Counted from the stretch's first letter, positions 34,674-64,000 are shown. The stretch: 64,000 nucleotides of DNA from Gemmatimonadota bacterium (GCA_039588295.1 JBDHAB010000015.1:31316-95315); one strand, 5' to 3'. Notes: generated by a model not told the origin, from the sequence alone. A program made the numbers and translations.

Positions 34674-35846
34674 ATGACGACCCTGCACCAGCTGGATCTC
34701 AACGAGCTGAGCACCGTGCTGAAGCAGCGCGGGCTGGACGGCTGGTTGGTGTACGACTTCCACGACGTGAACCCGATCGCCCGGCGGATGTTTGGCGCGA
34801 CGGGTATGCTCACACGGCGCCTGTTCCTGTGGCTCCCGGCTGTGGGCCCCCCCACCATCGTGGTTCATAACCTGGATCGTCCGGGGCTCGGACCGCTTCC
34901 GGGCGAGGTCCAGGTCTACACGACGTGGCACGAGCTGCACCACATGCTGACCCGCCTGGTCCGTGGTCGCCGCATCGCCATGGAGACCTCGCCCGAGAAC
35001 GCGGTGCCGTATCTGGATCTGGTCCCCTCGGGCGTCGTCGAGCTGTTGGGGCGGCTGGGAGCCACCATCGTCACATCGGCGCCGCTGGTCACGCGGTTCA
35101 CGGCGCGCTGGACGGCCGCCGAGCGTGAGGACCATCGAGCCGTAGCGGAGATCATCGCCGGGATCGCCCGTGACACCGTGAGCCGCGTGGTCGATCAGGT
35201 AGGCACGGCCAACGAGTACGCCGTGCGACGCGAGGTGCTCGGTGAGCTCCAGGCGCGGGAGTTGGCCGTGGAGGATCCGCCGATCGTCGCGTTCGGGCCG
35301 AATGCGTCCAGCGGGCATTACGAACCCAAAGACGGGCAGAGTCGGACGCTGGCGGCCGGGGACGTCGTGCTGCTCGACCTCTGGGCCCGACGCTCACCCC
35401 ACACCGTGTGGGCGGACCAGACCTGGATGGGGATCGCCGGCGGCAAGCCGGCCGGCGAGATCCAGCGAGCTTGGGAAGCGGTGGTTGACGCCCGGGAGGC
35501 TGTGATCCGGCGTCTCGAGCGGGCCGTGGCATCCAAGGAACGGGTGAGCGGCGCGGTCCTCGACTCGGCGGCGCGGGAAGTGGTGACGGCGGCCGGATTC
35601 GGCGAGTACTTCGCCCACCGAACCGGCCACTCGATCGAGCTCAGCCTCCACGGTTCGGGCCCTCATTTGGACGATTTCGAGACGCACGACGTGCGAGAAC
35701 TGGTCCCGGGGGTGGGATTCTCGGTAGAGCCCGGGGTTTACGTGCCGGGGAGGTTCGGTGTCCGCACCGAGATCAACGTGTTCCTGGGTCCCGACGGGCC
35801 CGAAGTGACGCCACGGGAGCGTCAGAAGGTATTGATAGGCGTCTAG
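34674..35846 (+). CDS. M24 family Xaa-Pro aminopeptidase
   Basis: VAFGPN...HYEP, LLDLW, ADQTW, HRTGHSI...HG, FSVEPGVY..G.FGVRTE. Confidence 0.9.
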   Translation: MTTLHQLDLNELSTVLKQRGLDGWLVYDFHDVNPIARRMFGATGMLTRRLFLWLPAVGPPTIVVHNLDRPGLGPLPGEVQVYTTWHELHHMLTRLVRGRRIAMETSPENAVPYLDLVPSGVVELLGRLGATIVTSAPLVTRFTARWTAAEREDHRAVAEIIAGIARDTVSRVVDQVGTANEYAVRREVLGELQARELAVEDPPIVAFGPNASSGHYEPKDGQSRTLAAGDVVLLDLWARRSPHTVWADQTWMGIAGGKPAGEIQRAWEAVVDAREAVIRRLERAVASKERVSGAVLDSAAREVVTAAGFGEYFAHRTGHSIELSLHGSGPHLDDFETHDVRELVPGVGFSVEPGVYVPGRFGVRTEINVFLGPDGPEVTPRERQKVLIGV

Positions 35847-35927: not shown

Positions 35928-35955
35928 TTGACACGCTTAACCATCGGCGTACATT
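35928..35955 (+). promoter_or_regulatory. Near-consensus sigma70 promoter for the TBDR-CTD-PorV operon
   Basis: TTGACA (35928-33), 16-nt spacer, TACATT (35950-55); about 180 nt upstream of ATG 36134. Confidence 0.55.
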
Positions 35956-36133: not shown

Positions 36134-39100
36134 ATGACAGACACAGGTCGTAGCGCATTTGGTCGCGCGGCACGCGTGCTCTTGGCACTCGGCGTGCTCT
36201 CGCTCGGAGCAACGGGGCTCTGGGCGCAGGGGACGACGGGGAAGATCCAGGGGACCGTGTTGGACCCGACGGGGCAGCCGATTGGGAACGCGCAAGTGTT
36301 CGTGCTCGGCACCTCGTTTGCCGCACTGACCAACGAGGATGGGTTCTACTTCTTGAACAACGTGCCCGCAGGTGTCTACTCGATGCGGGCACAATTCATT
36401 GGCTACCAGCCGGCGCAGATGGAGGGTGTGCGGATCTTGGCCGACCAGACCTTGACGGCCGATTTCCGCCTGTCGGGGGCGGTAGCCTTGGAGGCGATCA
36501 CGATCACCGCGGCGGAAGCGCCGATTGTGCCGCGTGACCAGGTCACCTCGAAGGCCATCGTGACCGGTGAGCAGATCGACGATCTGCCGGTGAACAGCAC
36601 CACCGCCGTGGTGCTGCTCCAGCCCGGTGTGATCGCCGGGCGGGGTGGCAGCCTCCGAATCCGCGGTGGCCGGTCCAATGAGGCCGTGTGGTTCATCGAC
36701 GGTGCTCCGGTGCGCCGGATGGACAACGCCTCCGTGGGCTTTGGGTTTGCCACCAACACCTTGCAGGAAGTGTCGGTCACCACCGGCGCGATGGACGCGG
36801 CGTTCGGTGACGCGCAGTCGGGCGTGATCTCCCTGGTGACGCGGTCCGGTGGGTCGCGGTTCGTCGGCACGCTCGCCTATGAGACCGACGAGCCCATGGG
36901 CAACAGTCTCTCGACCGGCTATAACCGGTTCGAGGCGGCAGTCAGCGGTCCGGTCTTCGGGAACCTCACGTTCTCGATCGGCGGCACGTTGACCGGAAAC
37001 CGCAGTGCCGCGACCGCCAAGGGCATCGAGGACATCCCGACCTATACGTTCGCCGGACTCGATACCACCGTGGTGTCCCTGTCCGGCTCGGACAGCCTGT
37101 TCACCGCGATTCCGCAGATTATTCAGTTCGGTGGCCAGTGTGAAGCGGCCGACAACGCTGGCTTCGAGTGCCAGGGCCGGCGGCGCCCCTATGGGTGGGC
37201 GACCGACACACGGGCGAACGCGAAGCTGCAGTACACGTACGGCAGCGGGTCGCGGGTCTCCTTCTCGGCGCTGACGAACATCAACCAGAACATGGGTGCG
37301 CAGTCGACGCTGAACGTGGAGTCGGAAAGCGGCGCGCGGTTGGTATCCAACCTGTTTGTGTTGAACTGGGTGCAGCAGGTATTCCGCGGCGCCGCCAGCG
37401 AGCTGGCATTCGACCTCAACCTGTCGCACCAGAGGTACAAACGGGTATCCGGCGTGATCGATCGCGCAACCGGCCTGGGTAACCGCGATCCGTTCCTGGG
37501 CATGGTGCTGAGCCCGCTGGATTTCGTCACGGATTGGGATCGGTTCGCGCCCGTGGATCCGGCGAATCACCTGTCGATCGACCCCCTGACGGGTGGCTTT
37601 TTCATCTCGCGGCTCGAGACCCAGGAGGACTGGGACGCGCTCATCGAGAACGTCCGCTACGACCGTGGCACACTGCGGTCGTACCTGGATCGTTTCGAGA
37701 TCGGAGCCCGGGACATCCCGCGGGTCAACGCGTACGGGACCCTCGCCGGACCGTCGACGTTCGGCATGACCACAGGGCAGAGCTATCAGTTTGAGAATCG
37801 TTGGGTCGGCCGGGCGAACATCGACTGGCAGGCCGATCGGTACAACCGGTTCAAGTTCGGGGTGGAGGGCACGCGTGCCGACCTCGGCCGCTACGAGATG
37901 ACCACCACTCGGAAGAGCTTCGGCAACGGCTACACCGGCGAGCCCTACAAGGTCGCTGCGTATGCGCAGGACCGGTTGGACCTGGGCGACGTGGTCATCG
38001 AGCTGGGCGTGCGGTGGGATCGGTTCGACACGCGGACGATCTTCCCGCTGGTCCCGGGCCGACTCTTCACCAATCCGGCGTTCGACGATGCGTTGACCGT
38101 CGACGCGATGACCTGCCCGACGCCGCGCTTCGGAGCGGACGGTGTGCAGGGCAATGCGGATGATTGTGACATCACGCAGTACGTGTGGGCGCCTGCCGAG
38201 TCGCACTCGGGGATCTCCCCGCGGGTCCGCGTGTCGTTCCCGGTCACCGACCGGACGGGCTTCCGGCTCTCCTACGCGCACCAGACGCAGGTGCCGGACC
38301 TGTTCAACATGTACAATGGCACCAACAACGACCTCGCCAACACGAACACGAACGACCAGTTCGGTGGCGACGCCGACCTCGGCAAGACCATCATCTTCGA
38401 GTTCGGGATCCGGCACGCGTTCAGCGAGGACATGGTGCTGGACATCGCGGCGTACAACAAGGACAAAGTGTCCGACATTACGTACCGCGTGTTGCCGTTC
38501 TTTGACACGTTCACCGACCGCGTGAGCAACGTGAACATTCTCACCAACGCGGACTTCGGCAATGTCCGCGGGGTGGACGTCCAGCTGCTCCGCCGGTTCG
38601 GCAACGTGTTCTCGGGCCAGGTGTCGTACACGTTCCAGAACGCGAAGAGCACCGGCTCTGACCCGACGGACTTCTTGAATGGTCTCTCCCGCGCGCCGTT
38701 CGGCGTGCTGGGTGAGAGGCCTGAGGCGCCGCAGACCACGCTGCGCACGCGGGACGACCGCAGCCACAACATCCAGGGCTCGTTCAGCCTGGCCTTCCCG
38801 TCGGACTATCTCTCGGGATCGGCGGTTGGCGCGGTGCTGCGGGATCTCGGCGTGTTTGGCACCTTCCAGCTTCGCAGCGGCCTTCCCTACACGCGGCTCG
38901 AAAACAACGGCCGTGGGAACCGCTCGACTGGTGGCTTCGGGCTCATCGCCGAGCTGATCGAACCTCTGCAGTCCTCGGAGACGCCGTGGGAGAAGTTCTT
39001 CGATCTGCGCGTGACGAAGGGCTTCCGTCTTGGTCCCACGGACTGGACGCTGTATGCGGACGTGCGCAACGTGCTCAACTTCACGAACAAGACCGCGGTG

Positions 39101-39487
39101 TTCTCCGAGACCGGGGACGTGGTGAACGAAGAGTACCTGCAGCGCGGGTTCCTCGATCCGCAGCTGCTCTCCATGGAGCAGGACGCGCTTGCGTCCGGCG
39201 CCTTGACGACGATCACGAAGGACATCGGGACGCCGGAGGAGCGGAACGTGAGCGCCATTGACCTGCGCAATCTCGGCGTGACCTGCCCGACCTGGGTGGG
39301 CTCCGGCGGTCCGGTTGGGTGTGTGATGTTGCAACGGACCGAGCAGCGGTTCGGCGATGGCGACGGCTACTACGATGTCGAGGAGCAAGTGGACGCGCTG
39401 ACGGCCTGGTACGACTCGGGCAACTCGCCGTCCAGCTTCTTCTCGAGCGGCCGGCAGGTCCGCCTCGGTCTGCAGCTGACGTTCTAA
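36134..39487 (+). CDS. TonB-dependent receptor with N-terminal carboxypeptidase-regulatory-like domain
   Basis: Signal peptide, TGKIQGTV, plug motifs IRGGRSNE..WFIDG and FGDAQSGVI.LVTRSG, YAQD, GVRWD, SPR..VSFP; C-terminal beta signal LGLQLTF. SD GGAGG. Confidence 0.92.
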   Translation: MTDTGRSAFGRAARVLLALGVLSLGATGLWAQGTTGKIQGTVLDPTGQPIGNAQVFVLGTSFAALTNEDGFYFLNNVPAGVYSMRAQFIGYQPAQMEGVRILADQTLTADFRLSGAVALEAITITAAEAPIVPRDQVTSKAIVTGEQIDDLPVNSTTAVVLLQPGVIAGRGGSLRIRGGRSNEAVWFIDGAPVRRMDNASVGFGFATNTLQEVSVTTGAMDAAFGDAQSGVISLVTRSGGSRFVGTLAYETDEPMGNSLSTGYNRFEAAVSGPVFGNLTFSIGGTLTGNRSAATAKGIEDIPTYTFAGLDTTVVSLSGSDSLFTAIPQIIQFGGQCEAADNAGFECQGRRRPYGWATDTRANAKLQYTYGSGSRVSFSALTNINQNMGAQSTLNVESESGARLVSNLFVLNWVQQVFRGAASELAFDLNLSHQRYKRVSGVIDRATGLGNRDPFLGMVLSPLDFVTDWDRFAPVDPANHLSIDPLTGGFFISRLETQEDWDALIENVRYDRGTLRSYLDRFEIGARDIPRVNAYGTLAGPSTFGMTTGQSYQFENRWVGRANIDWQADRYNRFKFGVEGTRADLGRYEMTTTRKSFGNGYTGEPYKVAAYAQDRLDLGDVVIELGVRWDRFDTRTIFPLVPGRLFTNPAFDDALTVDAMTCPTPRFGADGVQGNADDCDITQYVWAPAESHSGISPRVRVSFPVTDRTGFRLSYAHQTQVPDLFNMYNGTNNDLANTNTNDQFGGDADLGKTIIFEFGIRHAFSEDMVLDIAAYNKDKVSDITYRVLPFFDTFTDRVSNVNILTNADFGNVRGVDVQLLRRFGNVFSGQVSYTFQNAKSTGSDPTDFLNGLSRAPFGVLGERPEAPQTTLRTRDDRSHNIQGSFSLAFPSDYLSGSAVGAVLRDLGVFGTFQLRSGLPYTRLENNGRGNRSTGGFGLIAELIEPLQSSETPWEKFFDLRVTKGFRLGPTDWTLYADVRNVLNFTNKTAVFSETGDVVNEEYLQRGFLDPQLLSMEQDALASGALTTITKDIGTPEERNVSAIDLRNLGVTCPTWVGSGGPVGCVMLQRTEQRFGDGDGYYDVEEQVDALTAWYDSGNSPSSFFSSGRQVRLGLQLTF

Positions 39488-39560
39488 CCATATGGATCCT
39501 AGGGGTCGGGAGCGCCGCGCTGCGGCGCTCCCGACGGGGATTCATCGGAGTGAGGATCTG

Positions 39561-42500
39561 ATGACACGAAACGCATTGTTCAAACGAGTGGCTGGTGCCA
39601 GCATACTTGCCGCGTTCCTCGCGCTGGCGGTCGCATCGGTGGCGTCGGCGGAGCCCGATGAGCGGGCGAAGCGGGACCGCCGCGCCGGATTCGATCTGCT
39701 TCGCGCGTCGTCCACGTGGACCGCGCAGACGAACAAAGTCCAGTGCGGTCTGGACAACCAGGGGAACGTGTGCACCGACGTGTTCGGCTCCCCGACCGGC
39801 GGCGGCGGCTTTTGGCCGACGGGCTCGCCCAACCAGTACATCTTCAACTCGGGCCTGCAGATTGCGGGCGTCGTGGCCCAAGATGCCGGGTTTGCGTGGG
39901 CGGGCGACACGGTCGGTGCGTTCTTCTTCGACGCACGTGGCACCCAGCCCCAGGGTCAGCAAGTCACGCTGATCTACAGCTCGGTCAATCCCGACGATAT
40001 CGCCAGCTGGCCGAACGGCGCGGTCGTGCGGGATGCCGACCTCTACAACCCGGCACTGCTCGGCCGAGATGCCATCTCCCAGGAAGACACCTGGGTACGA
40101 TACTGGGACGGCCCGAGCCTGCTCTCGGGTCGCTCACACCCGATGGGCATTCTGGTAGAGCAGCGCGGGCTGGCCTGGAACTTCCCCTCCGGGAACGAAG
40201 ACATCATCTACTTCATCTACACCTTCACCAACATCAGCGCTTCCGACGCCTCGGCGTATGCCGCCCTGGATCCAGCCATTCAGTCTGAGATTGCGGCGAT
40301 TGGGGCGGACTGGGTATCCCAGACGGAAGACCGTACGGGCATCGACATCCCGGCGGGCGGCTACACCATCGACAGCCTGTTTGCGGCGTTCGCCATGGAC
40401 CCCGACGTTGGGACCAACGCCCGCGTGAACGCCTCGACGGCGATCCTGCCGTTCCAGATGGGTGTGGCGTATAAGACGGACTTCAGCGAGCCGACCTGGC
40501 TCTTTCCGTCGGATATCCACGGCCCGCCGTTCGGCCCCTTCCCGGGGTTCATCGGCGTGAAGTACCTGAAGAGCCCCGAGGATGTCGGGCTGACGCTGTT
40601 CTCAAACACGACGAACAGCGCGCGGTTTCCGGATCCGGTTGGTGTGTCCCAGCTGTGGCGCTATCTCTCCGGCCGTATCACGGCGGCTGAGGGCGACCCG
40701 GACTGCGACATCAACCCGCCGATCCAGCGGCGCCTCTGCTCGCTCGTGCAGAGCCCGGATGACACGCGATTCTACCAGGCGTCCGGGCCGCTCTCACTGT
40801 CTGCGGGTCAGTCTGCGACCATCGTCGTGGCCTATATCCACGCCGCGCCAGTGGCCTCGGTGGTGCAGCCGTTCGTCGGCGGCACGCTCGCGCCGGGTAT
40901 TCCGCCAAGTGGCACCCAGATCGCTGTCGACCCGTCGCTGTTGCGCGAAATCGAGCTAGGCAGCGGCTGGCTGGGACAGAATGACGCTGACGGCGACGGC
41001 GTGATCCGGCAGGACGAGGTCGTGACGCTCGATCGGTCGTTGCTGCAGAAGTCGCTCGTGGCGCAGAACCTGTTCGATGGGCAGTTCCTGTTGCCGTTCG
41101 CGCCTGAGTCACCGGACTTCTTCCTGGTGGCCGGCGACAACCAGGTCACCATCGTGTGGCAGCAGTCGGTGACGGAGACCATAGGCGACCCCTATTTCGC
41201 CATCGCGTCCGATCCGACCTCGGCGTTGAACGACGTGAACTACCGGTTCAACGACGTCGAGGGCTACCGTATCTACCGCGGCCGCAGCCGAGCACAGCTC
41301 GAGTTGCTCGCGCAGTTTGACTACTCTGGTACCACGTTCGTGGACTTCACCGGGCAGTGGGCGTACGACGGCAAATGCGCGCCCGAGCTCGGGATCTTGG
41401 ATGATTGCCCGTCCTTCCCGAACGAGATCGACCTGGTGGGTGACGTCTCGCAGGTGCCGCCAGGCGGCCGCGCGGAACTGGCGGGTGGAGATCTGCAGGA
41501 GTTTACGGATTTTCCAATCGGCGATGGTGACGCGACCAACTCGCCGCCGCTCGATGACCTGAACCCCACGGTGGTGCCGGGTTCGGTCACCATCACCGTC
41601 GGTGCCAGCGTGGCGACCGACAACGGTGCCGGTGGCTTCACCGGCGACGTGAGCGCGGGCAGCATCGACTACCTGACCGGCGCAATCTCCATCACGTGGG
41701 TACGCGTGATCCCCGACACCGAGGGAATCACCGTGGACTATAAGTTCACGCCGCCGCTGGGTTCTGGTGGGGTGCTGATCACCAACAGCGTTAACCCGCT
41801 GGAGGATGGCGGCTTCCCGGAGCTGGCCAACACGGGCGTGCCGTTTGCCTTCGTTGACCAGGCGGTCGTGAACTCGACGACCTACTTCTATGCGGTGACC
41901 GCGTTCGATTTCAACTCGGTCAAGTCAGGTCCGGCCTCGCTCGAGTCGCCGCTCGCCGCGCAGTCGGTCACGCCGCGGACGCCGGCACCCAACCAGGTGT
42001 TGGCGACCTTCACGTCGTTCCTCAGTGGGGATGACGGCGTGCGGCTGGACCCGAACGCATCATTGCCGCTCATCGACTCGGACGACGGCACCTTCAGCGG
42101 GCCGTTCCCACCGACCAACGCCTACACGACTGGGTTTGCGCCGGTGATTCAGCGCTTGCTTCCGGCGTTCAGCTTGGCCGCGACCATCGACAGTGTCGTG
42201 GTGTATGCGAGCTCCAACAGCGCGGGTGGCACGCAGGAGAATCCCAGCCCCGAGTGCCCTGAAATTCCGTTTACCAACGGGCGGGGGGCGAGTCCATTCG
42301 GTGCGTGCTGGGCCGTCCACCTGACAATTGATCTGGACGGGCAGACGACCCAGACGGTGTTCCGCGGCTACAACCCCTGGTGGGGGGCGTTCGGTGAGCC
42401 ACCGCAGTACGGCCTCGAGTCGGTCCGTAAAGGAGTACCGCTCGATGCGGCGTCGCTGCAGCAGTTCGGCATCCCGACGACGGGTTTCTCGTCGAACGCG

Positions 42501-43742
42501 GCCGTCGACGTGCAGGTGCAGGAAGCGATCAACAACAGCGCGGCCCAGGGGCCGCAGTCGCGCCGGTTCGGCAACTGGCACGGCGGCTCCCGCTGGTTCG
42601 ATGGTGACTCGGAGGCCGGCGACCGGGAAACGGTGGCCGACCCCACGCGGTTCATCCGCGTCGGCAGCCTGAGCGCGGTGGACACGGTGTGGAAGCCGGT
42701 GAGTCACACGCCGCCGGACGCTGGGCAGGCAGCGCCGTCCAACACACTGTCGTTTGAGAAGCAGTGCTTCAACCGCGCGCTCGCCTACTTGGGCCGGGCG
42801 GCCGATGTGCGGTTCACGTGGGGTGGCGGCACGTTCAGCGAGGTGCGGGATGTGACGCACCACGTCAATGTGCCATTTGACACGGAGGTTGGCACTACGT
42901 GGGGCTTCCTCACCACGGATGCCAACGGCAACGGCTTCCTGGACTGGCAGGACTTCAACTACATCGACGGGGCGTTGCAGATGGTCCGCAACGTCGATGG
43001 TGGAAACTGTGATGCTGTAGGCGGCGGCCGGTTCGATCCGGGCTTTGCGTTCACGCCGGTGCCGCTGGTGAATACGCCGACCATCGTGCCCACCAGCACG
43101 GACGGGCTCACGTTCGCCGGGATCGCAGGCATGGTCCAGACGGGCACCGGGTTCGGCCTCTTTGTCAATGGCGAGCGGTTCATCTTCGAGACGGCGACCC
43201 TGCCGGGGGACGGCACGGTGTGGACGCTGCGCAGCTACAGCGGCACCGTCCCCATCACCGGGGACCCGAACGCTGCGGATCCCACCGGCTATTCCTACGT
43301 CGTGAGTTCGACGGGCCGGTCGATTGGGCTCAGGCCGCTGCTGATTCCGGGTCTGACCTTCAACTTCACCAGCGCTCAGGCCACCACGACCGTCGCGCTG
43401 ACGGACAGCTTGCTGGATCAGGTCCATACGGTGCCCGATCCGTACTACGTCACGAGTGGTTTGGAGCTCACTCCGGGCCAGAAGATCATCAGATTCGTGA
43501 ACCTGCCACCCCAGGCGATCATCCGGATCTACTCGCTGAGCGGGGTGCTCGTGGATGTTGTTGAGCACCAGGATGTGTCGCTCGGTGGTGAGGCCACGTG
43601 GAGTGTCCGGAATCGCAACAATCAGTTCGTCGCGAGCGGCGTGTACTTCTACCACGTCGAGACGCCGAGTGGGTTGGAGAAGATCGGACGCTTCACCGTG
43701 GTGAACGCCAGCGGGTTGGCGATTGGACAAGGGAACCAGTGA
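39561..43742 (+). CDS. Large secreted protein (1393 aa) with a T9SS type A-like / FlgD-Ig C-terminal domain
   Basis: Sec signal ending ASA; FN3-like segments (GDNQVTIVW...EGYRIYR; VVNSTTYFYAVTAFD); C-terminus VPDPYY...IRFVNLP..AIIRIYSLSG.LV...W..RN.....VASGVYFYHV......KIGRFTVV. Confidence 0.82.
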   Translation: MTRNALFKRVAGASILAAFLALAVASVASAEPDERAKRDRRAGFDLLRASSTWTAQTNKVQCGLDNQGNVCTDVFGSPTGGGGFWPTGSPNQYIFNSGLQIAGVVAQDAGFAWAGDTVGAFFFDARGTQPQGQQVTLIYSSVNPDDIASWPNGAVVRDADLYNPALLGRDAISQEDTWVRYWDGPSLLSGRSHPMGILVEQRGLAWNFPSGNEDIIYFIYTFTNISASDASAYAALDPAIQSEIAAIGADWVSQTEDRTGIDIPAGGYTIDSLFAAFAMDPDVGTNARVNASTAILPFQMGVAYKTDFSEPTWLFPSDIHGPPFGPFPGFIGVKYLKSPEDVGLTLFSNTTNSARFPDPVGVSQLWRYLSGRITAAEGDPDCDINPPIQRRLCSLVQSPDDTRFYQASGPLSLSAGQSATIVVAYIHAAPVASVVQPFVGGTLAPGIPPSGTQIAVDPSLLREIELGSGWLGQNDADGDGVIRQDEVVTLDRSLLQKSLVAQNLFDGQFLLPFAPESPDFFLVAGDNQVTIVWQQSVTETIGDPYFAIASDPTSALNDVNYRFNDVEGYRIYRGRSRAQLELLAQFDYSGTTFVDFTGQWAYDGKCAPELGILDDCPSFPNEIDLVGDVSQVPPGGRAELAGGDLQEFTDFPIGDGDATNSPPLDDLNPTVVPGSVTITVGASVATDNGAGGFTGDVSAGSIDYLTGAISITWVRVIPDTEGITVDYKFTPPLGSGGVLITNSVNPLEDGGFPELANTGVPFAFVDQAVVNSTTYFYAVTAFDFNSVKSGPASLESPLAAQSVTPRTPAPNQVLATFTSFLSGDDGVRLDPNASLPLIDSDDGTFSGPFPPTNAYTTGFAPVIQRLLPAFSLAATIDSVVVYASSNSAGGTQENPSPECPEIPFTNGRGASPFGACWAVHLTIDLDGQTTQTVFRGYNPWWGAFGEPPQYGLESVRKGVPLDAASLQQFGIPTTGFSSNAAVDVQVQEAINNSAAQGPQSRRFGNWHGGSRWFDGDSEAGDRETVADPTRFIRVGSLSAVDTVWKPVSHTPPDAGQAAPSNTLSFEKQCFNRALAYLGRAADVRFTWGGGTFSEVRDVTHHVNVPFDTEVGTTWGFLTTDANGNGFLDWQDFNYIDGALQMVRNVDGGNCDAVGGGRFDPGFAFTPVPLVNTPTIVPTSTDGLTFAGIAGMVQTGTGFGLFVNGERFIFETATLPGDGTVWTLRSYSGTVPITGDPNAADPTGYSYVVSSTGRSIGLRPLLIPGLTFNFTSAQATTTVALTDSLLDQVHTVPDPYYVTSGLELTPGQKIIRFVNLPPQAIIRIYSLSGVLVDVVEHQDVSLGGEATWSVRNRNNQFVASGVYFYHVETPSGLEKIGRFTVVNASGLAIGQGNQ

Positions 43743-43795
43743 TCGGAGACACGCGGGTGGGGCTTTACGCCCCACCCGCCCACCGGAGGCATACT

Positions 43796-44938
43796 ATGAG
43801 AAGTTTACTTCGTCGCGCATTGGTCGGTGTCGCCGCCGTGGGGTTCGTCTCCGCTGGGGCGGTGCGCGCGCAGGAGGTCCCACTGCCGGGCATCGATAAC
43901 ACGGCGTTCGGGACGACCGCCGCCGAGTTTCTGCTCCTCGGTGCTGGTGCGCGTGGTGCGGCGCTGGGCAACTCGTTCGCCGCGATCGCCACCGACGCAA
44001 CTGCGATGTACTGGAATCCGGCCGGTCTTGCGGAGCTACCCCGGCCCAACTTCAGCATGTCGACGTACGATTACGTCGCCGAAACGCGGTACTCGTGGGG
44101 CGGACTTGCGTTTCCGTTCAACGACGGCCAGAGCGCCATCGGCATTCAGCTCGGGACCTTCGGGTTCTCGGATCAGCCGATCTACTCGCTGAGTGCACCG
44201 CAAGGGGATGGGTCGACGTACAGCGTGTCCGAGACATTCTTCGGCGTCACGTACTCACAGAACTTCTCGGACCGGTTCTCAGCCGGCATCACCGGCAAGG
44301 TCATCAGCGACCGGCTAGCGAAGGTGTCCGCCACAGGCGTGGCGTTCGACTTCGGGACCAGCTTCCATACGCTGATTGGGGACAGGCCGATTCGTGCGTC
44401 GTTCGTGATTGCAAACCTCGGTACGTCGCTGACACACTCGGGCGTCGGGCTGGACATCAACATCAACCGTCCGCCGCCGCCCTTGCAGCAGGAGGTCCCG
44501 CAGGATCCAGCCGCGGGACGCTACCAGACCGAGTCGTTCAACCTGCCCGTCGTGTTCCGGATCGGTCTCGCGTACGATTTCGTGAATTCGACGGCCACGC
44601 GTGTCACGTTGTTGGGGTCGTTCCAACAGCCCAACAACGCGGATCCGACCGGTGGTGGTGGCCTCGAGTGGGCGATCCCCAACATCGGAAACAGCGGGTT
44701 CACGGTGCACGCGCGTGGAAGCTATACGTACCAGCCTGACAACGTGCTGGATGCGACGCAGGGATCCGGGGCCGGGTTCCTCTCGGCCATCGAGTCTGAC
44801 AACGGGCTCGACGGCATAGCGGCGGGCGGCGGCATCTCGTTCGCCCGGGGCAACTTCCAACTTGGTGTCGATTATGCGTACCGCCACCTGGGCATACTGG
44901 GTGGCACCAACGTGTTCAGCGCTTCCGTCAACTGGTAG
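43796..44938 (+). CDS. porV: PorV/PorQ family (FadL-like) outer-membrane barrel
   Basis: N-terminal FLLLGAGARGAALG..F.AIA.DATAMYWNPAGLA, AFDFG, NLG, LPVVFRIGLAY, VDYAY; ends in an aromatic residue (VNW). Confidence 0.78.
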   Translation: MRSLLRRALVGVAAVGFVSAGAVRAQEVPLPGIDNTAFGTTAAEFLLLGAGARGAALGNSFAAIATDATAMYWNPAGLAELPRPNFSMSTYDYVAETRYSWGGLAFPFNDGQSAIGIQLGTFGFSDQPIYSLSAPQGDGSTYSVSETFFGVTYSQNFSDRFSAGITGKVISDRLAKVSATGVAFDFGTSFHTLIGDRPIRASFVIANLGTSLTHSGVGLDININRPPPPLQQEVPQDPAAGRYQTESFNLPVVFRIGLAYDFVNSTATRVTLLGSFQQPNNADPTGGGGLEWAIPNIGNSGFTVHARGSYTYQPDNVLDATQGSGAGFLSAIESDNGLDGIAAGGGISFARGNFQLGVDYAYRHLGILGGTNVFSASVNW

Positions 44939-45025
44939 CGCGGCGCACGATAACGAGAAAGGCAACGCTGCACGCCCGGCCGCTTCGGCGGTCGGGTGCG
45001 TGGCCCAACGAGAGCAACGCTTGAC

Positions 45026-46396
45026 GTGACGCTTCTGCAAGGGCTGGTCGCTGCCGCCGTGTTGGCGGGATTGGGAGGGCCGCAGGCCGGGACACCCGTT
45101 GAGGTGACGGTCAAGCGGTTCGCCCGCGGTGACCAGACCCTGGTGGACGGGTTCTGCCGCGTGGCGTTTGACTTTCTGACGCCGACGACGGGTGGGAATG
45201 CCGCGTATCGTCTCCAGGTGTCCGTGCAGGATTCGGCCGGTCTGCTGCTGCACGAATCCGGGTGGTCTCAGACCGTCCCGAGCAGTGTCCTCGAGATCCC
45301 GGGAGGGTCCACCGTCGAGCACTTTGCGTTCGCGGTTCCGAGCGGGCAAAGCGGGCAGTACACCGTGGCAGTGAGCGTTGCGGACTCGGCCTCCGGGCGC
45401 GTGGAAGGCGCCTCCGTTGAGTTGGAGGCACTGGAACGGGAGAGCCGCGTCTCCGATCTGCTGTTGACCGGAGACATGCGGCGCGCCACTGAAGTAGAGG
45501 CCGCGGTCGGGCCGGGCGAGGTCCAGAAAGGAAGGATCTTTCTATCCGCCAGCACGAGGCCCGTGCTCACGCCACGGCAGTCGGAACTCTATTACTATCT
45601 CGAGTTGTACCCCGGTGTGGATGCGTCCGTATCGCTGGCCGCACGGGTGTTTTCCGCGGACGGATCGGTCGTGACCAGTGCCGCGCCGCAGGAACTCGCG
45701 GTGCGTGGTACTGGGGGCGTAACGGCGCGCAGCTTGAGCCTCGCCGGTCTTCCCGAGGGAGAGTATCGGCTCGAGGTCGTCGCGCAGTTCCCTGACGGGG
45801 ACGTGGTTCGCGGCGCGCCGTTCACGATGACGGGCTTCGATACGGAGGCGCGGATCGCGCAGGTCACCACGGCGCGGTCGAGCGACCCGTTCGCGACCCT
45901 GACGGAACAACAGGCGGATTCGCTGTACGGTCCGCTCGCGTACATCATGGAAGCGGACGAGCGCGGGATCTATGACGACCTGTCGCTCACGGCCAAGCGC
46001 AACTACCTGCGTCAGTTTTGGGAGAAGCGAGACCCGACGCCGGGTACCCCGGCAAACGAGGCTCGGAGCACGTACTACGGGCTGTTTGCGGAAGCGACCC
46101 ACCGGTTCCGCGAGAGTGGTGCCGGTGACATTCCGGGTTGGCGGACGGATCGCGGTCGCATCTTCCTCAAGTATGGGCAACCGGAGGACGTGCTGCGGCG
46201 CCCGGAAGCGGCACTTACACCACCGTATGAAGTGTGGAAGTTCACCCGACCTCGCATGCTCAAGTTCGTATTCCTGGACGAGACCGGGCTTGGCAACTAC
46301 GCGTTGATCTATACCGACGATCGCTTTGAGCAGGGGCGCGCGGATTGGGAGCGCCTGCTTGGTGCCGAAGCGGTCCAAGACGTCTTACTGTTTTAG
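45026..46396 (+). CDS. GWxTD domain-containing exported protein
   Basis: FWEKRDPTPGTPANE, GWRTDRGRIFLKYGQP, PYEVW. Signal-like N-terminus from GTG 45026 (alternative start 44996). Confidence 0.88.
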   Translation: MTLLQGLVAAAVLAGLGGPQAGTPVEVTVKRFARGDQTLVDGFCRVAFDFLTPTTGGNAAYRLQVSVQDSAGLLLHESGWSQTVPSSVLEIPGGSTVEHFAFAVPSGQSGQYTVAVSVADSASGRVEGASVELEALERESRVSDLLLTGDMRRATEVEAAVGPGEVQKGRIFLSASTRPVLTPRQSELYYYLELYPGVDASVSLAARVFSADGSVVTSAAPQELAVRGTGGVTARSLSLAGLPEGEYRLEVVAQFPDGDVVRGAPFTMTGFDTEARIAQVTTARSSDPFATLTEQQADSLYGPLAYIMEADERGIYDDLSLTAKRNYLRQFWEKRDPTPGTPANEARSTYYGLFAEATHRFRESGAGDIPGWRTDRGRIFLKYGQPEDVLRRPEAALTPPYEVWKFTRPRMLKFVFLDETGLGNYALIYTDDRFEQGRADWERLLGAEAVQDVLLF

Positions 46397-46431
46397 GCCT
46401 CTGCAAGCCGCTCATCGGGAGTGAGGATCGC

Positions 46432-47430
46432 ATGAAACGACATTTCTTTGGAGCTGCCGGCGCGCTCATGGCCGTGCTCGTGTTGGCCAGTTGCGTGGAA
46501 GACCCCACTGCGGCTCTGCGCACGGGCACCGTCGACCGCGTCGCAATTTCACGCACGTACGTCGAGCTTGACGTCGGTGATGAGCTCAGACTGACCGCGC
46601 AGGCGTACGACGCCCAGGGGAACGCCCTGCCGGATCTGCCTGCCATTGCAACGAGTGACGCTGCCATTGTCGCGGTCGCCGTTGACGACTCGCTGTCGGG
46701 TGACCCGCAGCCCCAGACGGTGTTCACGGTGACCGCGATGGCTCCAGGCTCGGCCTCGATCACCGCGACCGCCGGTGGGGTGAGTTCCAGTTCGACGGTG
46801 ATTTCCTTCCCGCTCGTGTTTGATGGGACAGTCGCCGTCGACCAGACCGGTCCACAGGACATCGTCACGGTGTCCTCGTCGGCATCGGTCACGTTCGACA
46901 CTGCTACGGCCGTAGTTTCGATTGAGGGGGTCGAGACTGCGCTCATTTCGCGGTCGGGTGCCGAACTGCAGGTGGCTGTCCTGAACGAATCCGACGTCAC
47001 CGGCGCCACCGTGACCGTGAGTGGCCTCATCTTCTTGGGGAGCTCGCCCCTAGGTACGCTTGACGCTGCGACCACGCCTGACATTCGGCGCTCACCGTGG
47101 GCGACGTCTCAGGGATCGGCAATGGATGTCACGGGGCTGGCGCGTCCTGTGACGATGTATGTGCGGGTCACGTCCGCCAATCACGATATGTTCGTGAAGT
47201 ACGAGTCCGCGACGGACCTCCCACTGACGATCGACGTGGATTGGGATACCGATGCCGACGTGGATATCTACTGGGTCGATCCTGCGGGGTCGATCTTCGC
47301 CTGCGGTGGCGGCTGCACCGGTGCGAAGCCCGAACAATCGGTGCATACCGTGGCCGGTGGCGCCGTCGAGTATCTGAATATCGATCTGTATGATGGTGAT
47401 GACAGCAACGTGACGGTCGTGATCCAGTAG
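46432..47430 (+). CDS. Lipoprotein with Ig-like (Big_2-like) and beta-sandwich domains
   Basis: Lipobox VLASC; L.VG....LTAQAYD..GN...TSD..IV.V and PGSASITATAGG; C-terminal DVDIYW..P.G with a CGGGC pair. Confidence 0.75.
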   Translation: MKRHFFGAAGALMAVLVLASCVEDPTAALRTGTVDRVAISRTYVELDVGDELRLTAQAYDAQGNALPDLPAIATSDAAIVAVAVDDSLSGDPQPQTVFTVTAMAPGSASITATAGGVSSSSTVISFPLVFDGTVAVDQTGPQDIVTVSSSASVTFDTATAVVSIEGVETALISRSGAELQVAVLNESDVTGATVTVSGLIFLGSSPLGTLDAATTPDIRRSPWATSQGSAMDVTGLARPVTMYVRVTSANHDMFVKYESATDLPLTIDVDWDTDADVDIYWVDPAGSIFACGGGCTGAKPEQSVHTVAGGAVEYLNIDLYDGDDSNVTVVIQ

Positions 47431-47455: not shown

Positions 47456-47492
47456 GCAGAGGCCGGGCACTCGCCCGGCCTCTGCGCGTTTG
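47456..47492. terminator. Terminator hairpin closing the operon (convergent genes)
   Basis: gcagaggccgggc-actc-gcccggcctctgc (13-bp perfect stem) followed by gcgttt. Confidence 0.75.
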
Positions 47493-47512: not shown

Positions 47513-48832
47513 CTACGGCTCGAGCTGCGCTGCTCGCTCGGTAGCGTACAGGCTGGAAATGCGCTGCGCCCGGAACACGTAGACGCCCTCAATCCCGGTC
47601 AACTCCCAGCCACCGACCGCAGTGAACGTGGTTGGCGTGTCGATGAACTGCACGATCAAGAGCGCCGTTCGGGCGGCGGGGTTGATGAGATAGCGAACGA
47701 ACCTGCTCGGGGCGCCGGTGCCATTGTCGAGCATCTGGATTTGACCGGGTGCGCTGAGCCGTACGCCGTGTTGTCGCTCGAATGAGCCCTTGGGATCGTT
47801 CAACAAGGTGAACTCGTTGCGGAGACCCCCAAAGCGCCACATGACGTTCCCAGTTGCCGTATTGACCTTGGTGACCTCGTTCAGGCTCCGAAACGACAGC
47901 AACAGATTCCCGTCGATATCGAGCGCGATCCCATTACCATGGGTGAAGTTGACATTCGGCCCCATCCGTTCGCCAGCCGCGAGGTCGGTGATGGCGAAGT
48001 GGTCGAAGCTGTTCCACTCGAACAGGACCTGACCGTCCACTCCGAGGTGCTGGACAACGGTTCCCATCACGCGGGCGGTGTCCACGCCCCCCAGACTCGA
48101 GAGATCCATGGTGCGGGTCTCGTCGCACAGCATCCACGCGCTGCCGTCGGCCAGCACGAGCAGGTCGTGAAACCGGGTCTCGTATGCGACGCAACTCAGC
48201 GTTCCGGTTTCTTCGCCGAGCTCGTCCAGCACGTGGAACTGGTTGACCGTGTCGCCGAGACCCAGCACGGTAAAGCGCCCGTCCGCGTGCGCCTGGAAGG
48301 AGTTGAGGACGCCGTTTGGGAAGAACCGGTACCACACGACCTTCCCCGTATTGTCAATGATCACTGGCCCATCGGGGTACGACAGGGTGAGGAACCCGGG
48401 GGTCGTGTCGCTGCCTTGAGGCACGGTGGCCGGAATCCAGTTCGGGAGGCTCCCGGAGACGAACTCCGAGGTGTCGACGGCGGCGATGACCGAGTCGCCC
48501 AGGATCAGGTTGGTCTCGATGAAGTAGGTCGCGACCGTGTCGAGCGCCAGGACGGGAACCACAACCTCGGTGCCGCCGTCGAAGGCGTATCTCGGTGAGC
48601 TGCGGGGAGCCTCACCGGCCCGCCAGTAGCGTACGAACGCACTGTCGTAGAGTAGCGCGTCGATTGCTGCTCGCGCGCTGATCGTGTTGTGTGGGTTGGG
48701 TTGGATCTCGACCCCGCGGAACTCGGGCCCCGGCGGGGTGAGACCATTGTCGCCGGCGCACGCGGCAGCCCAGCCGGCCGTTCCCGCCACGAGCGCAAGG
48801 CTCTGTATCAAGTATCTCACGGATATGGTCAC
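47513..48832 (-). CDS. Arylsulfotransferase (ASST)-like beta-propeller lipoprotein, copy 1, with a 30-aa internal deletion relative to copy 2
   Basis: Lipobox AAAC; NPHN.ISA, FHD, FEWNSFDH, NFTHGN, LLLSFRSL, WRFGG, F.RQHG. Confidence 0.75.
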   Translation of the reverse strand: MTISVRYLIQSLALVAGTAGWAAACAGDNGLTPPGPEFRGVEIQPNPHNTISARAAIDALLYDSAFVRYWRAGEAPRSSPRYAFDGGTEVVVPVLALDTVATYFIETNLILGDSVIAAVDTSEFVSGSLPNWIPATVPQGSDTTPGFLTLSYPDGPVIIDNTGKVVWYRFFPNGVLNSFQAHADGRFTVLGLGDTVNQFHVLDELGEETGTLSCVAYETRFHDLLVLADGSAWMLCDETRTMDLSSLGGVDTARVMGTVVQHLGVDGQVLFEWNSFDHFAITDLAAGERMGPNVNFTHGNGIALDIDGNLLLSFRSLNEVTKVNTATGNVMWRFGGLRNEFTLLNDPKGSFERQHGVRLSAPGQIQMLDNGTGAPSRFVRYLINPAARTALLIVQFIDTPTTFTAVGGWELTGIEGVYVFRAQRISSLYATERAAQLEP

Positions 48833-48860
48833 AGCCGAATCGTTCCCAGTTCTAGTTGCC

Positions 48861-50246
48861 TCATCGGTGTCCCTCCAGATTCCAGTGGTGAGGGTACAGT
48901 GAGCTGATACGCTGCACGCGGAAGACCCTTCGTGCCTCGAGTCCCGTCACCTCCCAAGCCCGGTTGCCCGATTCGTCGATCTCGACAACCCGACCCGCAC
49001 GGCCAAAGGCCATCCCAACGTGACCGTTGTGGTAGTACTGCGCGCTGCCACCGGTCGGTGACCACGTGTCCGGGGCGTCCACGAACTCCATGATGAGAGC
49101 AGCGGTTCGGGTGACCGGGTTCATCAGGTACCGCACGAACCGGCTCGGGGCCCCGTTCCGATTGTCAAAGACGAGCAGTTGGGCCGGCCCGGCCGTCCGG
49201 ATGCCGTGCTGGCGCTGGAAGCCTCCCCTAGGGTCATTCAGAATCGTGAACTCGTTGGCGCGCCCTCCGAACCGCCACATCACCTCGCCGGTGGTGACGT
49301 CGACCTTGGTGACCTCGTTGAGACTGCGGAAAGACAGCAGGAGGTTCCCGTCCGTGTCGAAGGCGACCGAGTTCCCATGCGTGAAATTCACATTGAGTCC
49401 AATGCGCTCCTCGCGCGGGAGAGCCGCGATGGCGAAGTGGTCGAACGCGTTCCACTCGAACAGGACCTCGCCGTCCGAGCTGAGGTGCTGGACCACGGTG
49501 GCCCCGACCCTGGCCGTATCGATCCCTCCGAGGCCGGAGAGGTCCATGGTGCGCCGCTCGTGGCACAGGAGCCACGCACTCCCGTCAGCCTCGACCAGGA
49601 CGTCGTGCTGCCGCGTTCTGTACCCCGCACACCTCAGCGAGTCGACCATCTCCCCTAGCTCGTTGAGCACGTAGAACTGGCGCGCGTTGTCGACGGTCGA
49701 GTGGATCGTGTACTGCCCACTCGGGTGCGCCTGGAAATTGAGGACGGTGCCCTCGGTGAAGGACCGGTACCAGACGACCTTTGCCGCGTTGTCGATGATC
49801 AGCGCGCCCCGACGCTGGGAGAAGGCGAGAAAGCCCGGCGTGGTGTCCGATCCGTGGGCCCCCAGTGCCGGAACCCAGTCGGGCAGGGTGCCGGTGCGGA
49901 ACTCGGTGGTATCCACTGCCACAGTGAGCGTGTCGCCGAGCACGAGGTTGGCCTCGACGATGTAGGTCGAAGCCGTGTCCAGGCCGAGGACGGGGACCAC
50001 AATCATGGTGTCGCCGCCGAACGCGTATGCCGGGGTCTGCCGCGGTTCTTCCCCGGCCATCCAGTATCGTGCGAAGGCGCCGTCATAGTGCCGGGCTCGT
50101 ACCACCACCCGTGCGCTGATGGAGTTGTGAGGATTCTCCAGCACGTCCACACCAAGGACGTGTGGATTCGGTGAACCAGGGCCGCAGGCTCCGGCGAGAG
50201 CCGCCAGCACGGCGGCAAGCTGTGATCTCGAGGTCGGGTATCTCAA
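48861..50246 (-). CDS. Arylsulfotransferase (ASST)-like beta-propeller lipoprotein, copy 2
   Basis: Probable TTG start at 50246; lipobox LAGAC; QHD, NFTHGNS, LLLSFRSL, FQRQHG, VFDN, GGSAQ...NG. Confidence 0.78.
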   Translation of the reverse strand: MRYPTSRSQLAAVLAALAGACGPGSPNPHVLGVDVLENPHNSISARVVVRARHYDGAFARYWMAGEEPRQTPAYAFGGDTMIVVPVLGLDTASTYIVEANLVLGDTLTVAVDTTEFRTGTLPDWVPALGAHGSDTTPGFLAFSQRRGALIIDNAAKVVWYRSFTEGTVLNFQAHPSGQYTIHSTVDNARQFYVLNELGEMVDSLRCAGYRTRQHDVLVEADGSAWLLCHERRTMDLSGLGGIDTARVGATVVQHLSSDGEVLFEWNAFDHFAIAALPREERIGLNVNFTHGNSVAFDTDGNLLLSFRSLNEVTKVDVTTGEVMWRFGGRANEFTILNDPRGGFQRQHGIRTAGPAQLLVFDNRNGAPSRFVRYLMNPVTRTAALIMEFVDAPDTWSPTGGSAQYYHNGHVGMAFGRAGRVVEIDESGNRAWEVTGLEARRVFRVQRISSLYPHHWNLEGHR

Positions 50247-50317
50247 GGCTCGATCCAGGTTGGTGTCGGGGTGTTTCTCCGTGCGACCGCGGGAGAGGCT
50301 GCTGCCCGGGACGCCCA

Positions 50318-55920: not shown

Positions 55921-55952
55921 CGCCAACCGGTTCCGCAGCGGAGCCGAATTGC

Positions 55953-55985
55953 GGGCCCCGTCGCCAGTCGGCGACGGGGCCCTTT
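55953..55985 (+). terminator. Intrinsic terminator
   Basis: gggccccgtcgcc-agtc-ggcgacggggccc (13-bp stem) followed by ttt. Confidence 0.8.
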
Positions 55986-56157
55986 CGCTGCCTGAACCCC
56001 ATTTGGCGTGGCACGTTGAGCCGTGATATGGGGCATCTGGGACCCCCCCTACCGGTCCCGTAACCTCACTTGACCCACGCGCGCACGCGGGCGATTTTTC
56101 CCACCGAATTCGAGAAACCCTACTGTTTGTGTCCGCCTTCTCAAAGGAGAAGATCCC

Positions 56158-62069: not shown

Positions 62070-62165
62070 TGCTAACCGTAACTTACTACATTTGAAGGAC
62101 TTGAACCGGCCATTGTAGTGCCGCCCCTCACTGCACACAAGGTGTACCCCGCACGACGCTTGAAG

Positions 62166-64000
62166 GTGTCCCGTTTCTCGGTACCGCTCGCGGCCGCTGC
62201 CGCCCTCGCACTCGTGGGGCGGGCAGCGGCGCAAGACACCGTTCCCGTCGTGGCGGATACGGTGACCGCCGCGGCGCAGGATACTGCGGCCGTGCCCCGC
62301 GTGCGCCTCCGGTTCCCTGGGGCCCGGCGCCTGGCGTTCCGGGCTCCCCGGGCGCTGGATCCGGGTGGGATCCTTGGTGAGCGTCGTGCTCCGGGGCTGG
62401 TGGCAGCCCAGTGGGAAACGGAAACGCGCACACTCCTGGCGCGGAACCAGGCCGCGCGACGCCAGGAACGGCTACTGAGCTCGCTGGGGCTCCGAATCGG
62501 CCCGCAGGTCGCGCGACGGCGCCGCACCGCGCGGATCCCCCGACCGGAGGAGTTCCTGGAACCGCCGGAGGAAGAGACCGAGGCGGCGCGTACGTTCCGC
62601 GCCGTCGCCGCGTATGCGGACCTCGGGCTCGACTTACGGGCGCGGATCGAGGTCAAGCTGGACCGGCTGCGGAACGCGCGCTGTACGGCCGCGGAGATCA
62701 ACGACCCGACCCTCGGGTGTCAGGGCGGGTTCCCGACCCCGTCGTTCGACGAAGAGTTCCGCGTTCGCGCCGGCGGAATCGTCAGCGACCGGGTCCACGT
62801 GAACGTGGACTTCGACTCGGAGCGCGAGTTCAGTGCCAACAACAACATCAACGTCTTCTACCAGGGGCTCGAAGACGAGATCCTCCGTCGGGTCGAAGTC
62901 GGTAATGTGACCTTTCGGGCGCCCAACTCGCGCTTCATCACGGCCGCCGTTCCCGGAAACTCGTTCGGCGTTCAGGCAGAGGCGCAGGTCGGCCCCCTCG
63001 AGTTCCGCACCATCCTGGCGCAACAGAAGGGGTCGGCGATCCGGGCTCGCGATTTCACGGTGGGAGATGCGACGACGCAGCCCGTCGACATCGAGGCACG
63101 CGATCTGGACTTCGAGCAGTCACGCTTCTTCTTCGTGGTCGACCCCAGAACGTTTCCCTCCTATCCGCAAGTCGACGTGCTCAACATTCAACCCGAGACG
63201 CTCCCCAGCGATCTACAAATCGCCAACGTACGGATCTACCGATTGCGGGCGCAGAGCGGGCAGCTGGGCAACAACGTGAATTTGGGTGGGATCGACGCGA
63301 TTGCGGTACGGCGCGACAGTCCACAGCGGGTCGGACCGTTCTCGTGGGAGCTGCTCGTCGAGGGGCAGGACTACTACCTCGATCCGTCGGCTGCGTGGTT
63401 CGCGCTCGCCAGCCGGCTCGGTACCGACGATTTCCTCGCGGTCTCGTATGTGACGCTCGCGGGAGACACGGTGGGCACGTTTCCTTCGATCAATGGCGTG
63501 CAGGACACGCTCGAGCTCATCCACGAGCCGCGCCGGGGGCCCGAAGTTCCCACCTTCTTCTACGAGATGCGGAACGCCTACCGGCTCGCGGGCCAGAACA
63601 TCGATCGAGCCACGCTGACCCTGATCCTGCGCTTGGGGACCTCCGAGACGCCGCTGGATGCGCAGGGGACGTATCTGTCGCGCCTCGGGCTGGCGTTGGC
63701 GACCGACGCGTCGAAGCTGGATGACTTCAACCGGGTGTTTCCCCGTGAGCGCGATCCCGGTGGTGGGCTGCCGATTCGGGAGCTGTTCGTGATGTTCCCG
63801 CACCTCCAGCCGCTCGCGGACAGCGTGCGGCTGTTGCAGGGAGAGCGCAACGATTCGTTGTATCGGACGCCTGCCTATTTGCTGCGCACGCAGGGCCCGG
63901 CGTCACGGTTCACCCTCGAGCTTCACTACGAGGCAACCGGCGCTGGCGATCGATCGAACCTGAGTCTGGGGACGATTCAGGTCCGCGCGGGCAGTGAGCG
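62166..64000 (+). CDS. sprA: SprA / Sov (T9SS outer-membrane translocon)-like protein, truncated by the window edge (not in the ORF track)
   Basis: My translation from GTG 62166 (or TTG 62160) gives a signal peptide ...RAAAQD, then GIVSDRVHVNVDFDSEREFSANNNINVFYQGLEDEILRRVEVGNVTF.APNSRFI......NSFGVQAEAQVGPL....LAQQKG, matching the SprA N-terminal motif as I know it. I translated the N-terminal ~300 codons; absence from the ORF track fits an ORF with no stop before 64000. Confidence 0.82.
   Translation, partial: MSRFSVPLAAAAALALVGRAAAQDTVPVVADTVTAAAQDTAAVPRVRLRFPGARRLAFRAPRALDPGGILGERRAPGLVAAQWETETRTLLARNQAARRQERLLSSLGLRIGPQVARRRRTARIPRPEEFLEPPEEETEAARTFRAVAAYADLGLDLRARIEVKLDRLRNARCTAAEINDPTLGCQGGFPTPSFDEEFRVRAGGIVSDRVHVNVDFDSEREFSANNNINVFYQGLEDEILRRVEVGNVTFRAPNSRFITAAVPGNSFGVQAEAQVGPLEFRTILAQQKGSAIRARDFTVGDATTQPVDIEARDLDFEQSRFFFVVDPRTFPSYPQVDVLNIQPETLPSDLQIANVRIYRLRAQSGQLGNNVNLGGIDAIAVRRDSPQRVGPFSWELLVEGQDYYLDPSAAWFALASRLGTDDFLAVSYVTLAGDTVGTFPSINGVQDTLELIHEPRRGPEVPTFFYEMRNAYRLAGQNIDRATLTLILRLGTSETPLDAQGTYLSRLGLALATDASKLDDFNRVFPRERDPGGGLPIRELFVMFPHLQPLADSVRLLQGERNDSLYRTPAYLLRTQGPASRFTLELHYEATGAGDRSNLSLGTIQVRAGSE

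Follow-up and report, generated by a model that had tools for sequence, protein, structure and literature searches.

A five-gene Gemmatimonadota cassette encoding a TonB-dependent receptor, a putatively exported partner and a cognate PorV-family barrel

SusC/SusD (RagA/RagB) systems pair a TonB-dependent receptor with a surface partner encoded immediately after it, and in the polysaccharide utilization loci (PULs) of Bacteroidota many paralogous cassettes adjoin regulators and glycan enzymes. In type IX secretion (by the T9SS), all type A C-terminal domains (CTDs) are reported to use a single PorV (PMC12618676), and release of PorV-cargo from the SprA translocon is reported to require a motor (PMC10994853). 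In P. gingivalis, PorQ is described as the anchor of PorZ and PorV as that of PorU (PMC12365241), and the CTDs of both anchored proteins are reported as uncleaved (PMC11285876). BamG, of the 14-stranded FadL/BamG barrels, likewise is reported to anchor a surface partner (PMC12611786). Here we describe a five-gene cassette in a 64,000-nucleotide stretch of a Gemmatimonadota bacterium (GCA_039588295.1 JBDHAB010000015.1:31316-95315; the window), which encodes a TonB-dependent receptor, a putatively secreted partner with a type A CTD (the cargo), a PorV/PorQ-family barrel, a GWxTD protein and a lipoprotein.

The cassette shares with SusC/SusD the receptor with a CarboxypepD_reg extension and the partner gene directly behind it, and its copies in Glassbacteria-type genomes resemble Bacteroidota PULs in their number and in the regulators and glycan enzymes beside them. 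However, the partner is not a lipoprotein and gave no SusD match in family scans, having instead a predicted supersandwich fold and a T9SS CTD, and the receptor scores 30.2 bits on the SusC/RagA model TIGR04056 (cut-off 368), over its N-terminal 160 aa only. Thus the cassette would work like SusC/SusD while, by its sequences, falling outside that family. With PorQ-PorZ and PorV-PorU it has in common a PorV/PorQ-family barrel and a type A CTD nearest to those of PorZ and PorU, but those pairs are secretion machinery, whereas the cassette pair belongs to a receptor operon and is multiplied within genomes; outside the CTD, to which the likeness is restricted, the cargo shows no PorZ or PorU match. 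The preliminary description of this DNA had mentioned type B CTDs, whose PorP/SprF carrier is reported to lie directly downstream of its cognate cargo (PMC12618676); the layout is alike, but the cassette has a type A CTD and a PorV-family barrel, and PorQ-PorZ and PorV-PorU are the closer anchor model.

We consider it fairly probable that the cassette serves uptake in the manner of SusC/SusD, with a partner exported by the T9SS and tethered by the barrel. This reading starts from the identities and order of the genes, their joint duplication and loss, their co-occurrence with SprA and the predicted fold of the partner.

Genes of the cassette and their families

The five genes, all on the + strand, are as follows.

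36134..39487, + strand: gene 1, TonB-dependent receptor, 1117 aa (family scans)
39558..43742, + strand: gene 2, putatively secreted partner (cargo) with type A CTD, 1394 aa (open reading frame and family scans)
43796..44938, + strand: gene 3, PorV/PorQ-family outer-membrane barrel, cognate to the cargo, 380 aa (family scans)
45026..46396, + strand: gene 4, GWxTD protein, 456 aa (family scans; alternative GTG start at 44996)
46432..47430, + strand: gene 5, lipoprotein, immunoglobulin (Ig)-like, 332 aa (lipobox-like VLASC; weak Big_1)

The gaps between them are 70, 53, 87 (57 with the alternative GTG start) and 35 nt, in agreement with the preliminary description of five co-oriented genes spaced by 35-90 nt. 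Its placement of the organism outside Bacteroidota is also borne out, the relatives being named Gemmatimonadales or Gemmatimonadota.

The receptor has a Plug domain (34.9 bits; cut-off 23.9) and a CarboxypepD_reg N-extension in the family scan, and its barrel region matches TonB-dependent transporter models, all under their cut-offs. The last residue of the barrel, F1117, is invariant in 48 sequences. With its plug and its barrel ending in an aromatic residue, gene 1 is a TonB-dependent transporter. The segment LEAITITA is presumably a TonB-box-like motif, and a PDB sequence search with the receptor gave nothing useful. Two more TonB-dependent-type barrels (920 and 1080 aa) lie at 53158-59400, neither of them followed by a gene for SusD or a cargo, and contigs C65 and C8 contain receptor-like genes close to the cassette receptor, likewise without cargo. 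Six separate SusD matches and eight TonB_C matches are also found in this genome.

The cargo can be divided into these parts.

39699..41093, + strand: predicted N-terminal beta-supersandwich (the head) with linker helices, aa 48-512 (model and structure search)
41118..41969, + strand: FN3-like domain, aa 521-588 and 764-804, with inserted subdomains (strand pattern and motif)
41496..41747, + strand: beta-rich insert of about 85 aa, almost confined to this genome (alignment occupancy)
41979..43412, + strand: variable domain, aa 808-1285 (alignment; second EF-hand-like loop at aa 1121)
43425..43712, + strand: type A CTD, subtype VP[DN]PY...F[VT]NLP...ASG.Y...G[RK]F (profile searches)

Its N-terminus is signal-like as read from the sequence, and the structure model spans aa 31-1230 with a pLDDT of 89. 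The best structure match of the predicted head (VIA) has Z 19.0, rmsd 3.4 and 9% identity over 257 aligned residues, and the fold is that of the non-catalytic N-domains of GH15/GH94/GH116 enzymes (Z 18-19). We rejected the cargo as a glycoside hydrolase (GH) of these families, as the matches are confined to aa 48-512 and the model shows no (alpha/alpha)6 barrel. The first EF-hand-like loop, at aa 476, lies in the head region. Divergence is concentrated in the head (identity across classes 0.14-0.26) and the variable domain, while the FN3-like domain, which is conserved across classes, and the CTD change little. A minimal homologue of 623 aa in L137 consists of head, FN3 and CTD without the variable domain. 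The insert has an occupancy of 0.03 at aa 701-750 (30 sequences) and weakly matches phrog_6128, a phage family (E 4e-5). No Pfam match was obtained for the cargo, and no PDB sequence match with its body profile.

The type A-like CTD claimed for gene 2 is confirmed by the isolated tail (last 112 aa), which reaches 24.9 bits on TIGR04183 (cut-off 23; whole protein 19.2). Among homologous CTDs, 21 of 25 match TIGR04183 and 25 of 25 match the PorZ model at E<=0.001, and PorZ (E 0.012) and PorU (E 0.09) are the only PDB matches of the CTD profile. With an identity of 0.65-0.79 among 30 Gemmatimonadales and about 0.4 across classes, it forms a conserved subtype distinct from the generic CTDs of the same genome. 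The position usually held by Lys in the last strand is Arg in 47, Lys in 3 and unscored in 2 of 52 Gemmatimonadales CTDs, and Lys in 28, Arg in 4 and unscored in 4 of 36 CTDs from families f10-f12 of the phylum.

The barrel scores 139 bits on PorV_fam (NF033709; cut-off 90), and the nearest solved relative of its profile is PorV (6h3i; E 2.4e-16), so that its proposed grouping with PorV/PorQ rather than FadL stands. It lies below all equivalog cut-offs (PorQ 69/220, PorV2 59/325, PorV 44/250), and by these scores gene 3 is a paralogue within the PorV/PorQ family, not an orthologue of PorV or PorQ. FadL/BamG barrels are a related family, seen in a weak Toluene_X match; gene 3 was rejected as a member at 16.3 bits on Toluene_X/FadL (cut-off 29.7) with no FadL or BamG NCBIfam match, and a FadL-like gene on contig C22 of the same genome shows the reverse score pattern. 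Elsewhere this genome has a PorQ-like gene, and its second gene of the PorV family (133 bits; L013:2395-3378, contig C18) lies in an era-like-to-bamA-like cluster as read from the sequence and is a candidate housekeeping shuttle. At L109:8859-13083, an M6-like T9SS-dependent protein is followed by its own PorV/PorQ-family barrel, a second cognate pair without receptor.

The GWxTD protein (TIGR04514, 86.6 bits, cut-off 28; PF20094, 39.3, cut-off 26.9) has a signal-like N-terminus, two Ig-like domains (aa 25-268) and a helical plus alpha/beta GWxTD domain. Its fold-search results are dominated by Ig domains (RbmA, GH2 Ig domains), with the C-terminal domain barely probed; the latter perhaps resembles BamE. 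An ESM Atlas search found clusters for the protein, a PDB sequence search gave nothing useful, and our literature search found no paper on the family. Operon-type GWxTD genes (E<=1e-25) occur in 37 of 55 f1 genomes, tracking the cargo, in 6 of 6 of f11-f12 and in 0 of 9 of f10, and none adjoins any of 30 Glassbacteria-type triplets of receptor, cargo and barrel. The idea that this protein is an assembly factor thus found no direct support, and it is likely a dispensable periplasmic accessory. Three further GWxTD genes exist in this genome (C1, C8), and second copies lie near the cassette in L150, L151 and L080. Homologues of the lipoprotein are roughly 330 to 840 aa long, most of them beginning with C-x-x-D-P, and the protein is likely an extra surface binding protein.

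Conservation, duplication and loss with SprA

A GTDB scan confirmed 536 relatives, and locus counts were taken from the best 69 loci of these. The receptor lies directly upstream of the cargo in 60 of 64 scorable loci and the barrel directly downstream in 46 of 50; the GWxTD gene comes next after the barrel in all 43 scorable loci, and the lipoprotein gene next after it in 31 of 37. The four-gene order is also found in other orders and classes (L148, L150, L151). Among paralogous cargo genes, both partners flank 30 of 37 (L109-L147; regions picked mostly around PorV matches), and the triplet is therefore conserved, as had been proposed.

The cargo profile matches 53 of 121 genomes of the phylum, among them 33 of 55 in family f1 (and a partial gene in G051), none of 28 in f2, none of 11 in f7, and all 15 in f10-f12, with 3-14 matches each; the f10 homologues carry the name Ca. 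Glassbacteria. An ESM Atlas search returned only unnamed clusters, most commonly from Gemmatimonadota, Zixiibacteriota and Fidelibacterota, and a 50%-cluster search gave 1013 clusters at E<=0.001. Labels of other phyla are a single WOR-3 and Bacteroidota, on partial matches, which do not establish a range beyond Gemmatimonadota.

Among 14 G044 paralogues, r is 0.85-0.97 between the distance matrices of the four parts compared (receptor, cargo body, CTD, barrel), with weaker congruence p-values for 7 paralogues in G057 and 6 in G047. On the sequence comparison, these congruent trees show duplication of the cassette, not contact between its products. Loss is joint as well: all five genes are gone from G043 and G016, where sprA and the flanking peptidase are retained. 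In G058, G088 and G129, which have no SprA match, the site has kept nothing of the cassette but the GWxTD gene's N-terminal half, directly behind the peptidase (L155:7700-8470, L156:9628-10551, L157:9402-10277) and encoding two Ig domains behind a signal-like start. These remnants may go back to one ancestral event, and the truncated product may be functional in its own right.

The translocon gene itself begins within the window.

62118..64000, + strand: 5' part of the T9SS translocon gene sprA, truncated where the contig stops (profile search)

It is split over contigs C15, C151 and C42, and the C151 frame scores 248 bits (cut-off 200). A SprA match accompanies the cargo in 52 of 53 genomes, all but G054 (91% complete), and no cargo occurs in the 9 f1 genomes without a SprA match. 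SprA_N was matched in 88 of 121 genomes, and SprA occurs without the triplet in at least 13 f1 and many f2 and f7 genomes. The distance from the cassette to sprA is 17-29 kb in 22 of the 34 f1 genomes with a cargo, where sprA follows downstream on the cassette's own contig and strand; this linkage may be plain family synteny.

As in a canonical T9SS, SprA, PorV-family genes and CTD proteins are present here. Unlike there, 0 of 121 genomes, this one included, gave a GldM or GldN match in searches without a positive control (controls silent), and PorU was recovered from 0 of 106 genomes of f1-f9, this one and its class included, while it is found in 15 of 15 of f10-f12. Of the machinery that the preliminary description had named for a genome search (porK/L/M/N/U), GldM/GldN, in those searches with silent controls, and PorU were looked for and not recovered. 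One source states that T9SSs "may" occur in Gemmatimonadetes (PMC11285876), and another describes SprA as present across the phyla of the Fibrobacterota-Chlorobiota-Bacteroidota (FCB) group (PMC12611786). The export route is likely a stripped-down T9SS.

Most generic type A CTD proteins of this genome, and a C25 protein, lie on contigs C28, C64, C68 and C79. Tetranucleotide composition is odd for C28, C64 and C68 (C79 unscored); C68 carries the C25 protein, which is partial and scores 17.6 on PorU2 (cut-off 450), and also proteins ending in SWGQIKxLY. These four contigs are possibly mis-binned.

Proposed role and rival explanations

In the mechanism that we propose, the cargo would leave the cell through SprA with its CTD bound to the adjacently encoded barrel, and would afterwards remain attached to this cognate barrel on the surface, permanently, as PorZ does on PorQ. 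The supersandwich head would rest on the TonB-dependent receptor, capture a ligand and hand it over for import, as SusD does for SusC, and the cargo would thereby take the place that a lipoprotein lid usually has in capturing nutrients.

A predicted complex of receptor aa 505-1117 and the supersandwich scored 0.55 (runs 0.60, 0.00 and 0.55), against 0.00 for the best of three controls, with contact agreement of at least 0% and partner pLDDT of at least 82. Scores at the pass mark that do not exceed 0.60 were obtained for 18 of 157 solved complexes and for both of the mismatches (2 of 215) that passed, and the receptor-cargo structure prediction that the preliminary description had suggested therefore gives weak support. 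Around the 30 triplets, 69 of 98 genes within two places were kept, 29 being dropped by eye. Of these neighbours, 26 of 69 are regulators (20 of two-component or sigma54 type, 6 ROK) and 10 of 69 match GH, polysaccharide lyase (PL), esterase or carbohydrate-binding module families, with sugar oxidoreductases, a symporter and TonB among the rest. In L140, L148, L150 and L152, the triplet is immediately preceded by an exbB-exbD-tonB operon. In the Glassbacteria-type copies, the ligand is likely a glycan. The putative SusC/SusD-like complex with a cargo held by its own PorV paralogue, as first described, thus gains indirect support from co-duplication, co-loss, PUL-like neighbours and a weak complex score.

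Several points weigh against it. Cassette duplication alone would produce congruent trees. Cargo homologues lack an adjoining receptor or barrel in L086, L090, L094 and L095 as well as in L144-L147, one in L072 lacks an adjoining barrel, and some unpaired homologues bear a generic CTD, indicating uses of the head domain beyond the triplet. The supersandwich fold is not sugar-specific, since the YidC periplasmic domain matches too (Z 12.2), and a PorZ-like hairpin also occurs in the generic CTDs of the genome, so that it does not prove the CTD to stay uncleaved, and in Glassbacteria-type genomes the PorU present could carry out the cleavage. The complex score is weak, with one run of three at 0.00, no interface output and a third of the barrel excluded, and the neighbour counts come from a set trimmed by hand, with no background rate across the genome to compare them with. 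No glycan enzymes stand beside the window's own cassette. If release from SprA depends on a motor, no energy source is known for an export that lacks GldM/GldN.

Among the other explanations, the cargo may be tethered by the barrel and serve as an adhesin or surface scaffold, the receptor being merely co-regulated and no lid needed, which we regard as unlikely. Adhesins typically have such features as FN3, an Ig-like insert, motifs resembling calcium loops and a variable domain; orphan cargos exist, the cassette is single-copy at a fixed site in Gemmatimonadales, and G065 (L158:7100-19899) has the order cargo-receptor-cargo-barrel, with two cargos around one receptor. Against this stand the receptor-cargo adjacency, which extends to every Glassbacteria-type copy examined in G044, G047 and G057, the metabolic neighbours and the weak complex pass.

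That the barrel is a dedicated recycling shuttle, from which the cargo is released to bring ligand back to the receptor like a haemophore, seems to us quite unlikely. Canonical PorV is reported to release type A cargo (PMC10994853, PMC12618676), and the f10-f12 genomes do have PorU, but shuttling could be done by the second PorV-family gene and the PorQ-like gene elsewhere in the genome, and one barrel per cargo in 30 paralogous cassettes, together with the high CTD identity, fits stoichiometric holding.

A role for the cargo as an enzyme on the surface, of mutarotase, lyase or hydrolase type, that supplies products to the receptor seems to us improbable. Mutarotases and GH174/PL enzymes (Z 12.8-14.2) do use this fold for catalysis, and conservation across classes extends to some D/R residues (D402, R404), but the top matches are the non-catalytic N-domains, the (alpha/alpha)6 barrel is missing from the model of aa 31-1230, and the head is highly divergent, without Pfam or PDB sequence match. 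Least probable of all is a receptor acting as energy coupler, its TonB pull extracting the barrel-cargo pair from SprA in place of the missing GldLM motor; this agrees with the lack of GldM and GldN matches beside SprA_N in 88 genomes, with the TonB motor operon upstream in four loci and with the nearness of sprA, but those searches had silent controls, the linkage may be synteny, SprA without the triplet would need another energising route, and a dozen copies adjoining sugar genes suit import better.

Returning to the uptake module, a wider form of it appears possible to us, though doubtful. FCB bacteria outside Bacteroidota would use a motor-less T9SS mainly for assembling TonB-dependent capture complexes of a third class, composed of a receptor, a lid exported by its CTD and a cognate PorV-type anchor, in PUL-like arrays in some lineages, and TonB, via the receptor, may free the anchor-lid pair from SprA.

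We found no description of the cassette in the titles and abstract openings of the T9SS reviews and mechanism papers that our literature searches listed. If the uptake reading is true, mostly uncultured FCB lineages have a nutrient-capture system that is missed by PUL searches based on SusC/SusD, and their polymer use is therefore under-predicted. Type A CTDs could then have cognate, permanent PorV-type anchors, and a PorV paralogue for each cargo would contradict the single-PorV rule as reported (PMC12618676). It would also raise the question how SprA frees cargo where GldM, GldN and PorU were not found, and the GWxTD family would gain its first genomic context.

Regulatory signals and flanking genes

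Three further features surround the cassette.

34674..35846, + strand: M24 metallopeptidase, fixed upstream flank, outside the cassette (retained where the cassette is lost)
35928..35955, + strand: sigma70-type promoter TTGACA-16-TACATT (matches 10 of 12 positions)
47456..47485, + strand: 13-bp hairpin and T-rich tail between convergent genes (sequence scan)

The near-consensus sigma70 promoter reported earlier exists as a sequence and is preserved as TTGACA..TA[CG]ATT in four close relatives, but the scan total for the region is near chance (2 vs 1.5+/-1.3 at shuffle level), and the pattern was matched at 6 of 40 loci, a count without shuffle control. Similarly, the hairpin with its T-rich tail, described as the terminator closing the operon, is present, but the terminator scan total is near chance (13 vs 8.0+/-2.9). 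Downstream of the cassette follow arylsulfotransferase-like, CtaA and Na+/H+ antiporter-family genes. The arylsulfotransferase-like lipoprotein genes form a tandem pair on the minus strand (47513-50516) and also adjoin the cassette in several close relatives.

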